Origin: Octopus sinensis
Lineage: Eukaryota
Length of the DNA: 64,000 nucleotides
Reading direction: 5' to 3'
Assembly (NCBI RefSeq): GCF_006345805.1
Contig: NC_043004.1
Coordinates: forward strand, 7,440,001 to 7,504,000
In this document: positions 8,615-59,839 of the stretch, in pieces
Position numbering within the stretch: position 1 is the first letter of the stretch
How the letters are laid out: every line of letters begins with the position of its first letter
Notes under the pieces: model-generated
What the model was told of the DNA's origin: nothing
What the model saw: only the letters and a program-made list of their open reading frames with translations
Database searches by the model: none
Translations under genes and position numbers: made by a program

Positions 8615-8970
8615 TCTTTCTTCTCGTTTACCCCACTTGACGCGGCTTCAAAACCACCGATTCTGATTGAAACTTGACACACATAGCCCAATGTCATAAT
8701 TCAAAACGCAGCAGCGAAAACGTTTGAAAAGTTTTCCCAGTTCTGAAAAAAATCGTAAATTCGACACGAGATTGGTGGTCGAGATATCAGAAAACCCAAA
8801 CCCACAGACCCCCCCCCCGTTATGGGGAACGCCGCAACTACACCTTTTTAACTCTCAAAAAAAATTTACCATTTTTTCCCCATTTTTTTTGCTATTTTTT
8901 GCTATAACTCTATAAAAATATTTATAGTTATTGCCCTTACAAACCTGAGCACGCCGGGCGATACTGCTAG

Positions 8971-8972
<2 letters not shown>
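8615..8972 (-). mobile_element. Non-autonomous Helitron-like element in (TA)n
   Basis: Minus strand starts tactagcagtatcgcccggcgtgctc, shares this terminus with 9037-9412 and abuts (TA)n. The left boundary is approximate. Confidence 0.5.
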
Positions 8973-9032
<60 letters not shown>

Positions 9033-9036
9033 TATT

Positions 9037-9412
9037 ACTAGCAGTATCGCCCAGCGTTGCTCGGGTTTGTTTCGACCCTTTAGAATTGGAATTTTGAAAA
9101 GTAAAATTTTGCATTATGTAGCTTGTTATTCTCTTTAAGGGAACATTTTCTGGTTGAAATACACCGAAAAATGGCGACACAGCAGTAAAAAAATCGTAAA
9201 AAATAGGGATTTCATAGAAAAGAAAGCACCTTTTTGATGTAAATAATTTTTGTGTGTTATCATGGTCCGATTTGAATTTTTTTTCTACGGAATGAAGAGG
9301 CAAGCCTTCTTCTATCATACTCTCCATTTTGGTCAACTCGGCTGCAGGGTCTCGGAGAGAGATAGTGTTAGCTGAAGGCTACCAACCTGCCATACACAGA
9401 CAACTTCAGCTT
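9037..9412 (+). mobile_element. Non-autonomous Helitron-like element in (TA)n
   Basis: Starts actagcagtatcgcccagcgttgctcggg, has a subterminal inverted repeat agctgaag...cttcagct and ends in (TA)n. No TIRs or long TSD. Confidence 0.55.
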
Positions 9413-14720: not shown

Positions 14721-14855
14721 GCTATTTTCATATGAGTTAGAACTTTTGAAACTACAAGAACATTCGTGAATGTTTCCAGTTCTATATTTAACAGATGAGG
14801 AATTATGTACATTATTTACATTTGAAGGATATTTGTCCTCATCTTGTTTGTTGTT

Positions 14856-14901
14856 AACACAACGTTTTGGCTGATATACCCTCCAGCCATCATCAGGTGC
14901 C
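14856..14901 (-). ncRNA. Minimal type-I hammerhead motif, GAAA changed to AAAA
   Basis: Minus strand: ggcac CTGATGA t ggctg-gagggtatat-cagcc AAAA cgtt gtgtt. Confidence 0.55.
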
Positions 14902-14956
14902 TTGGGGTAATTTCGAACCTGGGTTCTCAGTATTTGTTCTCGATGTTGTTATTATT

Positions 14957-15200
14957 GATAGTATGTTGACAACTTAATGTGACAGTCCCATGAAAGGGAA
15001 GAATGCTACTGTTATTTAGCCCCAGGAAACACCGTTTCCTGTTGGACTTGACACATTTCCTGTGTCTTTATGTTTTCAAAGTGGAGACAAGCACCTCCAC
15101 CCAGCAAAGCTAGCATCCAGAGACTGTCACATTAAGTTGACAACATACTATCACTTTATCGTGCTGCTACTGCATAAATCTCTCTAAGAGATTTAGAAAT
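14957..15200. mobile_element. Nested insertion with a 31-bp inverted repeat, a 3' hairpin and a 14-bp TSD
   Basis: IR gatagtatgttgacaacttaatgtgacagtc (14957-14987) / 15122-15152 with one mismatch. Hairpin taaatctct-cta-agagattta. atgttgttattatt is duplicated at 14943-14956 and 15201-15214. Confidence 0.65.
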
Positions 15201-15355
15201 ATGTTGTTATTATTCAGGTCACTGCTTAGAATCGAACTCGGAATCTTGGGGTAAGTAGCCTGCACTCTTACTCACTATGGTATATGCCTGTTGGCATCGT
15301 GGTTAAGAGCGTGGGCTAATAACCCCAAGATTCCGAGTTCGATTCCAGGCAGTAA

Positions 15356-15391
<36 letters not shown>

Positions 15392-15443
15392 CAACATTGA
15401 AAAATACCTTAGGAATGAGAACCCAGGTTCGAAATTTCCCCAA

Positions 15444-15489
15444 GACACCTGATGAAGGCTGGATAGTATATCAGCCGAAATGTTGTGTT
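15444..15489 (+). ncRNA. Minimal type-I hammerhead ribozyme motif (best-preserved copy)
   Basis: gacac CTGATGA a ggctg-gatagtatat-cagcc GAAA tgtt gtgtt. Helix I gacac/gtgtt, helix II ggctg/cagcc, intact CUGAUGA and GAAA, predicted GUU triplet. Sister arms show ACGT at helix III, here ATGT. Confidence 0.65.
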
Positions 15490-17061
15490 AACAACAAACA
15501 AAATGAGGACAAATATCCGTCCAATGTAAATAAGTTCCCAGTGTTGTCTACAGTTGGAAACTGTTCCTGCCTTGTAGTACCTGTTTATAATTATTAGGAT
15601 CACGTTAGTTAAAATGGCTTGGTAATTAACCCAACCTTGTGTTGTTAACAAGAGGCAAATTGCTCATCTCATCACTTGATGTCTGCTTCCCAGTTAAGCT
15701 GAGCATTGGACATTGCTTTGAAATGCAACAAGGACGCTGCAAGAAATGCTGCCTTTTTTTTTTTCTCATTTGAAGTTTATTTCAGTTCCATAGACTAATA
15801 TGTTGTCCTCTAGTTGAGCTAATTCAAGATATTCCTCCTGTGAGTTTTGCCAGAAAGGATTTGGGTCTCGCAGATCTTAAATAGACAGTGAATGTCAATG
15901 AGAGAGCCTCTAAATAGCTGGGTGATTTGCTAGAAACAGCAGACAAATCCGATACCTATCATTTTAAAGGAAAACGTTGGATAATGTATGGTTGTGGCTG
16001 AAATGGCTTTGGCCACAAGTCTGCTCAATCAAGAATGATTTGACACTAAACAACAACAGTAACAACAATGAAAAGCAAAACCAAGGTTTTTGATTTTTCC
16101 TTTTAAAGATTGTAAATAAAATAAAAAGTTATATATATTAATCGTCATCATCTTCATCATCATAGGGTTGTTTTACATACTGGCATGTGCTGGACAGTTT
16201 GACAGGATCTGGTAAGGGTGGGGCTGCAACAGGCCCCATTGTCTTCTCTGGTTTGGTTTCTACAGCTAGATCTGTGTGTGTGGGGGGCTTCTGCTTGAAA
16301 TTATAATAATTATGGTGGTGGTGTTGGTGTGGGAACTATGAATGGATTCTCTTTACTACTTTGGAGAAATGTATCAATAGATACTTTTTTTTTTTACTTG
16401 GAATATTTAATACTTTCATTTCCTGTTGCTGTGGAAAAGACCTAAACTTTATTGTTTCGTGACAAGTGTAGGGAGTGGTGTCTATTTATGATATTGTATC
16501 AAATTTGTTGATCTTGTTTGTCAGGAAGGAACATTAATGTCAACCTGCATTAAATTATCTTCAGATACTGCCATCCTGTCTGAGAAAGAAAAAAACAAAA
16601 ATTCAGTGAGGATGTAGCCCAAAGTGCTCTTTATCCACCAACAAAAGAAAACAGCCTGAAGAATGATCTGTTGTTATAATTTAATAATAAACCATTACTA
16701 TTTTAGCTGTTGTACTTACAATATTGCAATGATTCTGTGTCTACAGTGATAGTCACTTTTTCCTCCATCCCCTATGATAGCAGGTGCTATCAAAAATATT
16801 AATCCCTAATCCATCTCATCAACATACACCACTTTAAGTCAACGAGGGAGCTTCCATATATTTACTCAGCCTGCTAGAAATAGCTGCCAATCGTCTTACT
16901 TATTGTGTTCTAACATCTTCTCTAAGGACAAGTTGCATTAAATACATGTAAATCGGGTTGTAGGAATATATATGATGATCATGTGTGGTTGATCAGGGTT
17001 GACCTATGGCTAAACAGCGACATACAAGGCTTCAGTCAAGTCACTGAGAGACCTTCTATGC

Positions 17062-57820: not shown

Positions 57821-58129
57821 GATAAGAAAATAATTTATTCTCAAACGCAGGATAATGCTGACAGGACAGCAGGAACAGGATAAGATATCCATATTTTGCA
57901 GAAAAATTGGTCAAGGGCCAGCCATAAGACTCGAATTCACAAATTTTGGATTAATTTATCAGTGGACAGTTTAGCTTAATGGTAAAGCACTTGACTGGTA
58001 ATCACAGATGTGAGCTTGAGTCTCATGGATGACTGCTGACATATTTTCCCACAAAATATGGATATTTAATCCTGTTCTTGCTGTTCTGTCAGCATTATTC
58101 AGTGTCTGAGAATAAATTATTTCCTTATC
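57821..58129. mobile_element. Second type of palindromic element centred on a tRNA-like head
   Basis: ~130-bp imperfect inverted arms (gataagaaaataatttattctc... / ...gagaataaattatttccttatc) around tagcttaatggtaaagcacttgactggtaatcacag. Confidence 0.65.
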
Positions 58130-58894: not shown

Positions 58895-59276
58895 CAGTTC
58901 TATATTTAAGAGATGAGGAATTATGTACATTATTTACATTTGACGGATAGTTGTCCTCATCTTGTTTATTGTTAACACAACGTTTTGGCTGATATACCCT
59001 CCAGCTTCCATCAGGTGTCTTGGGGAAATATGCCCATGGGCATATAGCATAGTGGTTAAGAGCGTGGGCTACTAACCCCAAGATTCCAAGTTCAATTCCA
59101 GGCAGTGACCTGAATAATAATGATAATAATAATAACAATAACAACATCGAAAAATACCTTAGGAATGAGAACCGAGGTTCGAAATTTCCCCAAGACACCT
59201 GGAGGGTATATCAGCTGAAACGTGTTAACAACAAACAAGATGAGGACAAATATCCGTCAAATGTAAATAATGTAAA
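58895..59276. mobile_element. Palindromic tRNA-head/hammerhead element, copy 2
   Basis: Same left terminus as copy 1 (cagttctatatttaa). Central palindrome atatgcccatgggcatat, tRNA-like head 59038-59110, degenerate hammerheads at 58974-59019 (-) and 59194-59226 (+, core deleted). TSD-like taccaggtgtttt / taccaagtgtttt. Confidence 0.75.
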
Positions 59277-59839
59277 TACCAAGTGTTTTGTTGGTTCCAA
59301 CGAATATGGATAGCACTAAGAAGGAATGGAGTTCACAAAGTATGATACATGGAGACAGTCTTCAGTGGCCATTCCTTAAGACTTAATGACTTAATCATAG
59401 GTTAGGAGACTCTGGCTCTGACATACAATTACACAGGAACTAATTATTGACATTCTTTGTGTGTGTGTGTATTTTACTTATTCAAAATGTGTGAATATGC
59501 CCTCAACGAATACTCATTAATATATATATATAGATACACACATCACATATGCATTCATTCATCATACAAATATGCTTTGGTTAATGGCTTGGCTGATGTA
59601 ATTAAGTAAATAAGATTAATTTAGTACTTAGTTAAATTGACTAAACAATATATTGTTCTCCAGCTCCAGATAATTAGCATCGTCATCAGTTTAATAACCA
59701 TTTCAATCTATTTCCCTGTTCTGTCATGAATGCATTAACTCCTCTTATTACTACTACTACTATTACTATTATTGTTGTTATTGTTGTTGTTATCATCATC
59801 ATCATTATTATTATTATTACTATTATTATTATTATTATT

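Follow-up and report, generated by a model that had tools for sequence, protein, structure and literature searches.

The stretch of the Octopus sinensis genome analysed here (64,000 nucleotides of contig NC_043004.1, hereafter the window) contains a palindrome in which two inverted arms, each with a tRNA-like head, are joined head-to-head at 15291/15292, and this raises the question of whether such a structure is a mobile unit in its own right or a fragment of a larger element. A sequence-only reading had taken it for a separate non-autonomous SINE carrying a hammerhead ribozyme and a 3' end borrowed from a Penelope-like element (PLE). We find that the palindrome consists of two short, back-to-back end pieces of a coding Penelope-type retrotransposon and is not a separate parasite; the head, which by alignment appears to derive from a tRNA, likely serves as the putative promoter of that retrotransposon, an uncommon arrangement, if so, where an element codes for its own enzymes.

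The palindrome and its family

The two arms are complementary at 92% over 118 nt (14812-14929/15416-15533) and at 84% over a second stretch of 76 nt (15204-15279/15295-15370). Both carry the head, the (AAT)n tract, helix I, the CUGAUGA core and helix II, as had been described, and a full ribozyme is found in neither: ATGT replaces the palindromic ACGT at 15480-15483 of the right arm, and AAAA replaces GAAA at 14865-14868 of the left arm, where G12 is mutated. The left arm is interrupted at about 14956-15200 by an unrelated element with terminal inverted repeats (TIRs). The features of the locus, with the pseudo-LTR abbreviated as pLTR, are the following:

14772..14779, + strand: candidate target-site duplication (TSD), left copy; matches 15534-15541 at 7 of 8 positions, overlaps the element end and is weak alone
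14777..14811, - strand: one-sided tail of about 34 nt at the left-arm 3' end, made up of the coding sequence that directly follows the pLTR; in long copies it leads into the 5' end of the ORF
14812..14955, - strand: left arm, 3' part of the pLTR (post-AAT segment, hammerhead, AC-rich segment)
14856..14901, - strand: minimal hammerhead of the left arm, predicted to be inactive since G12 is mutated and GAAA reads AAAA
14956..15200, no strand assigned: nested unrelated TIR element in the left (AAT)n tract, with a 32-nt TIR pair
15204..15291, - strand: left head, putatively tRNA-derived, starting with AC at -2, the sharpest start of the family
15292..15359, + strand: right head, putatively tRNA-derived, 5'-truncated at the A box; B box near 15335-15345
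15360..15395, + strand: (AAT)n/(AAC)n tract of the right arm
15415..15417, + strand: first in-frame ATG of the element ORF, the inferred start codon, upstream of the hammerhead
15444..15489, + strand: right minimal type-I hammerhead with mutated helix-III palindrome; helix I 15444-48/15485-89, core 15449-55, helix II, GAAA 15477-80, predicted cut after 15484
15490..15533, + strand: right-arm 3' end, without tail
15534..15541, + strand: candidate TSD, right copy, read directly
58895..59278, no strand assigned: second insertion of the family, a tailed left arm truncated before the head and a tailless right arm with a full head

A loose CUGAUGA..GAAA pattern occurs in the window at chance level (2 found against 0.82 expected), so the case for the ribozyme rests on the family and not on this motif. 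The arm is a genome-wide repeat, for which a first look gave 3447 candidates, 40 of them scored, and exact matches to the core, helix II and helix III number 2065 in the genome versus 0 for a reversed control; the figure of about 18,000 arms used below is a rough estimate, obtained by dividing 2065 by 4/35. Among the sequencing runs listed as containing the sequence, none is recorded as RNA, and the DNA runs bear six organism labels. The hammerhead motif is intact in the family majority and corresponds by sequence and predicted fold to the minimal type-I class, as had been supposed, with dimer pairing predicted through ACGU. Neither the tRNA nor the hammerhead family of Rfam matched this element, and ARAGORN called no tRNA in the window or in five loci of the family. 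The apparent tRNA origin of the head, likewise proposed earlier, rests on its alignment with a host tRNA-Ile(AAT) gene, which matches in 45 of 74 columns and scores 58.5 against 21 +/- 5.5 for shuffled sequences, the best of 2000 shuffles reaching 42.5, with tRNA-Ile as the one isotype compared. Both the A and the B box of the head are intact in the majority sequence.

Several other repeats were noticed in passing. A second copy of the nested TIR element (L279, 700-925; 88% identity over 147 nt) has TIRs of about 80 nt, so part of the left end is missing from the window copy. The window also holds a short, MITE-like inverted repeat with a (TA)n centre (8939-9070), and at 57965-58034 a match to the Rfam tRNA model (30 bits) that ARAGORN does not call and that is probably the head of another SINE family. 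Eight of nine tRNA-Ile(AAT) pattern matches lie on small unplaced contigs (L255-L260). A second repeat family with a minimal hammerhead, characterized by a CUGACGA core, an ACGU mini-helix and a T-rich context, was seen at about 1330-1490 of L019 and, downstream of the element, in L097.

The coding element behind the arms

A genome search with the Pfam GIY-YIG model recovered other PLE families, and none of its 30 loci matched the arm beyond (AAT)n; the partner ORF was found instead through the flanks of unselected copies, some of which share DNA 5' of the head that translates as a GIY-YIG C-terminus. A search with this C-terminal sequence gave 2933 candidates, of which 30 loci were fetched, and in 28 of these 30 (a set that includes the query itself once and one duplicated locus counted as three) the stop codon is followed by 27 nt and then by the head, the head being deleted in the other two. 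With about 30 independent loci, an assembly artefact at the junction of ORF and pLTR is excluded. For the 5' end of the ORF there were 388 candidates; in the 30 fetched, the tail and a varying length of the pLTR stand ahead of it. In two near-full-length copies (L121 and L122), a tailless pLTR in inverted orientation is followed by a disrupted RT/endonuclease ORF, a pLTR and a tail, and partial-tandem pLTRs with an inverted 5' copy were seen in L121, L122, L199, L206 and L281.

The majority of the aligned copies defines a unit of 2652 nt with one open frame of 848 codons, or 835 residues from the first ATG, in the order head, (AAT)n, ATG, hammerhead, tail, RT/GIY-YIG ORF, stop codon, 27 nt and next head. 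The first ATG precedes the ribozyme core by 34 nt, and the hammerhead is located some 70 nt into the frame. An RT piece of the ORF matches RVT_1 (E=1.3e-7), and homologues at 50-61% identity carry PF00078 (RT) and PF26215. One of these proteins (P0003, 847 residues) aligns from the ribozyme-encoded TPD..PKRCV stretch onward and likewise reads through a hammerhead-like stretch in the same frame, which implies that the frame through the ribozyme is conserved. The C-terminal part of the translation reads YSIPCSC..YKGET.R..EEH..ADH, which we take to be a GIY-YIG endonuclease at the C-terminus, with a CCHH motif; the Pfam GIY-YIG model had no match on the family copies tested, and no CxxC linker, a point relevant to placement in Poseidon as opposed to Neptune, was seen before the nuclease in the majority frame. 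Copies diverge from the majority by 4-5% at non-CpG positions, and no intact copy was present among those fetched. The junctions of stop codon and head, the anatomy of the two near-full-length copies and the majority ORF together indicate that the whole arm, with its head, corresponds to the pLTR and the initial codons of an autonomous element of Penelope/Poseidon type, to judge from sequence.

The link to Penelope made by the sequence-only reading is thus borne out, and the match it had expected between the 3' part of the arm and an autonomous pLTR in the same genome extends to the whole arm. Its notion of a separate SINE with a borrowed PLE 3' end is not supported, because the head, too, belongs to the autonomous element's pLTR. 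Consistent with this, arms starting at the head (n=105) and ORF-linked heads (n=55) are similarly divergent and differ at 2 of 252 sites, neither of which marks a lineage of short copies, one variant lying in the ORF-linked set and the other in a variable end repeat. The lack of a marker in this comparison argues against a separate SINE lineage, of which none was detected, with the proviso that a sample of this size could miss a minor subfamily.

Headless sister families of Poseidon type, which would have given a fair control for the TTTT counts below, were not found; all 30 best loci for P0004 belonged to this tRNA-headed family, and a metagenome scan yielded no relative. Some peripheral observations concern the ORF and its neighbours. 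A 9-nt repeat before the tail keeps the frame in 38 of 39 copies, and we give it no weight since it may reflect slippage. In L208 (about 2100-2250), a pLTR is interrupted by some 130 nt of foreign sequence that is rich in GC. A young and abundant PLE family with intact 781-residue open frames (L228, L037, L038, L050, L057) has a 3' hammerhead-like motif with the degenerate core UUGAUAA, and its subfamilies differ in their 3' UTR repeats. Two further GIY-YIG matches (L040 and L041) seem not to be PLEs and presumably represent an exon of a cellular SLX1-type nuclease.

Insertion anatomy and the 5' ends of copies

Exactly one tail is present in 63 of 67 two-armed loci (none in three, two in one), in agreement with the one-sided tail postulated from the window, and in 41 of the 43 two-armed loci of an unselected set of 89, the other 46 not being scored as two-armed. 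The 3' ends of copies fall into two clusters (236-243 and 265-270) about 30-34 nt apart, both inside the ORF start. After removal of seven loci with microsatellites on both flanks, exact TSDs of 7-15 nt, most often 12, were found in 37 of 60 loci compared with 19 of 708 mismatched flank pairs. Shared non-CpG variants number 42 for arms of the same locus, compared with 12.9 +/- 3.3 for arms of different loci, most variants being private; this sharing could stem from gene conversion. No site was found that distinguishes tailed from tailless arms, and either kind can be the longer, their lengths varying independently. In the available text of the respective papers, PLEs are described with an inverted truncated copy and a 30-40-bp tail (PMC8557442), with minimal hammerheads on opposite strands 100-700 bp apart (PMC4209133), and with two internal RT start sites and nicking and extension of both target strands (PMC11167929). 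Inverted arms, a one-sided tail and a variable TSD are therefore known Penelope features; the palindrome itself is not the transposing unit and reflects ordinary Penelope behaviour.

That the palindrome moves as one unit, in the manner of a MITE or other DNA transposon, might be thought from its long inverted arms and from the tailed end, which reads CAG beside TA in many copies, and has in our estimate next to no chance of being correct: the ends are asymmetric in 63 of 67 loci, the TSD varies from 7 to 15 nt, the arm lengths vary independently and the sequence is contiguous with the RT ORF. Symmetric TIR ends with a fixed TSD were not found, and a TIR transposon, which had also been set aside on the sequence alone, is excluded. 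Two other candidates were rejected. The 89 unselected loci contain dispersed single or inverted arms, with direct second copies only occasional, and not the head-to-tail tandem of hammerhead monomers of a non-LTR retrozyme; and the element is a coding PLE with pLTRs and not a non-coding LTR element with PBS and PPT of the TRIMp3 kind. Some headless copies (L087, L099, L028, L197, L208) are joined via (AAT)n to the 3' ends of other repeats, namely a LINE-like coding end and another abundant repeat. These joins suggest that (AAT)n tracts are preferred targets or annealing sites.

The 5' ends of copies cluster at -2 to about -12 of the head. The head is reached by 27 anchored arms, and 22 of them end at -20..+10, or about 0.026 per nt versus 0.006 inside the head; the (AAT)n tract is a second hot spot of 5' stops (26 of 69 arms). 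Genome-wide, 200 intact heads lack C at -3 versus 654 that have it (the pattern for the 654 excludes A at -13), and of 14 inspected among the 200, eight were clean starts at A(-2) joined to other DNA, three were mutated ORF-side junctions and three were of the mirror type. The tailed arm of the window starts at -2 of the head, as does L298, which has a TSD. Five copies extend to the head from the 5' side of the ORF, and three of them start there (L190, L195, L281); L281 begins at -2 and continues across the entire ORF as far as the next head. Junctions genome-wide are exactly mirrored in 233 cases versus 305 on the ORF side, and about a third of intact heads continue on the ORF side (35 of 100 among the matches listed, judged by eye), a pattern that a second pLTR predicts but that a Pol II precursor would explain as well.

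Pol III typically starts at a purine a few bases ahead of a tRNA-like sequence. The sense strand of the 2.65-kb unit has no TTTT against 31 on the other strand; the expectation is 2.9 by synonymous shuffling (P=0.024) and 2.5 by dinucleotide shuffling (P=0.06), so that the lack of TTTT reaches no more than modest significance. Three other PLE ORFs of this genome, which belong to other families and have about twice the Phe of the headed element, contain 9, 10 and 13 TTTT at equal T content. Together, the starts at -2 and the TTTT-free sense strand suggest transcription of the element by Pol III, with internal priming of RT yielding SINE-sized inserts. RNA-seq, which had been put forward as a source of defined ends, showed no pile-up of ends: in three raw RNA runs, whose species label is shared by some of the runs containing the family, the strands were equal and 87-89% of the reads ran into the flanks. 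This signal is passenger transcription only, and as such libraries are unsuited to short Pol III RNA the result speaks neither for nor against it. No well-supported splice joint occurred among the RNA-seq matches listed, and a short intron considered for the tail region, where a pyrimidine tract and AG occur, had no RNA-seq support.

The clustering of 5' ends could also arise from a hairpin or fold-back at the junction and not from Pol III initiation. The master junction folds at -11.6 kcal/mol, palindromes at junctions are described for rotifer Penelope pLTRs in the available text of PMC3846280, the TTTT depletion is weak, and the Pol III interpretation of the head is drawn from sequence. Nonetheless, we judge this account unlikely, given that the clean starts at -2 joined to unrelated flanks require no fold-back, that these starts lie in the loop of the hairpin and not at its base, that the A and B boxes persist in the majority sequence and that one copy of the whole ORF (L281) starts at the same nucleotide.

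A putative Pol III route, its relatives and its implications

The explanation we favor, with a probability of roughly two in three, is that of a coding Penelope element transcribed by Pol III from the tRNA-derived head of its pLTR, with internal RT priming and with inverted pairs arising from paired cDNAs. Under this proposal Pol III would start at A(-2), meet no TTTT and be able to read through the ORF into the next pLTR. By analogy with the biochemistry of Anolis Poseidon, both strands of the target would be nicked by the element protein, which would start RT at two internal positions; cDNAs primed in the first pLTR would be SINE-sized, at 240-270 nt, and those primed in the second would carry the ORF. 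One cDNA per nick, joined at their 3' ends, would then produce an inverted pair with a single tail and a variable TSD, and the head-to-head joining might be helped by the GCCC-AC-GGGC mini-palindrome at the RNA 5' end or by microhomology. The hammerhead is predicted to be quiet as a monomer and to cut only as a dimer or with help from a protein. The AC/GT centre was oriented by the tailed arm in all five loci at first, but only by 15 to 8 in the larger set of 35 loci (a further five uninformative and seven symmetric). A strict snap-back of a single cDNA was dropped because the centre orientation is thus not tied to the tail, a result that suits the joining of two cDNAs. Two further points count against the Pol III model, namely the unexplained translation of an uncapped Pol III RNA and, from the available text of PMC3846280, the presence of junction palindromes in PLEs without a tRNA head.

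The more far-reaching form of the proposal, in which a captured tRNA promoter would direct Pol III synthesis of full-length genomic RNA across an ORF purged of TTTT, one RNA giving rise via internal RT start both to full-length elements and to some ten thousand or more SINE-like inserts, we hold tentatively, at somewhat below even odds. A different division of labour, close to what the sequence-only reading had in mind, would have the ORF mRNA made by Pol II while the head, in pLTRs or dispersed short copies, makes short Pol III RNAs that the element protein copies in trans, the SINE thus being embedded in its own partner. Short copies starting at the head do greatly outnumber full-length ones, and single arms that extend from -2 to the RT start sites resemble SINEs, some of them having TSDs. 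We nevertheless consider this improbable: short copies bear no subfamily markers, the unit offers no TTTT terminator at which a short RNA could stop, some copies starting at the head extend into or across the ORF (L190, L195, L281), and the template of Anolis Poseidon, in the available text of PMC11167929, needs ORF beyond the RT start sites, which the short copies lack.

Returning to the favored coding Penelope element, comparisons with known systems are drawn here from the available parts of the cited papers. Poseidon_Ac (PAc) of Anolis, from the Penelope/Poseidon clade, shares the single ORF of RT and C-terminal GIY-YIG, a hammerhead overlapping the ORF start, AT-rich targets and a pair of 3' ends within the 5' region of the ORF, by which the tail is defined, and is likewise reported to show no pile-up of ends in RNA-seq; it differs in that its text describes no tRNA-derived head and in that the start codon of the octopus element lies further upstream of the ribozyme core (PMC11167929). 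Penelope families of Adineta vaga share an inverted pLTR that includes the first codons, an optional 31-bp tail, an 8-10-bp TSD and palindromes at inverted junctions; they are assigned a putative TATA/Inr Pol II promoter, and the available text nowhere mentions tRNA (PMC3846280). Cassandra, Helenus and Ajax (TRIMp3) share a small-RNA-derived Pol III promoter in the terminal repeat, which is putative in our element, and differ as non-autonomous LTR elements of <1.3 kb with PBS and PPT; Kojima argues in the same text that autonomous partners must use Pol II (PMC10886601). Schistosoma Sm-alpha and Sj-alpha share a tRNA-derived, SINE-like repeat with a hammerhead (PMC2770079); their hammerheads are of the canonical type (PMC4209133), and they are non-coding, with no link to a PLE ORF described in the available text (PMC2770079). 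TRIMp3 elements and Sm-alpha are the closest analogies. Metazoan non-LTR retrozymes share a type-I hammerhead and are related to PLE pLTRs, and unlike the present dispersed, head-to-head family of a coding element they are head-to-tail tandems of non-coding monomers (PMC7761336; bioRxiv 10.64898/2026.07.22.740005).

The apparently new part is that the pLTR of a coding element contains a promoter derived from a tRNA and probably used by Pol III. No PLE with a tRNA-derived pLTR was found in the literature covered, namely the listings and main texts of openly available papers. Ohshima and Okada reportedly described octopus tRNA retroposons in 1994, and the head or the family may already carry a name. 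The available texts on cephalopod repeats (PMC13282606, PMC8967140) and the giant squid genome (PMC6962438) contain no tRNA-headed PLE, nor do those of SINEBase (PMC3531059) and the 2026 retrozyme preprint, in the latter of which the word 'tRNA' does not occur.

Automated annotation would assign the roughly 18,000 arms to tRNA SINEs or to MITEs. SINEs and non-autonomous TRIMs are known to have Pol III promoters, and a coding Pol III element of 2.65 kb would, if true, break the expectation of Pol II and lead one to ask how translation proceeds without a cap across a ribozyme that lies in frame. With a fixed RNA 5' end, the family would also provide a clean natural test of how the inverted repeats and one-sided tails of Penelope elements form.
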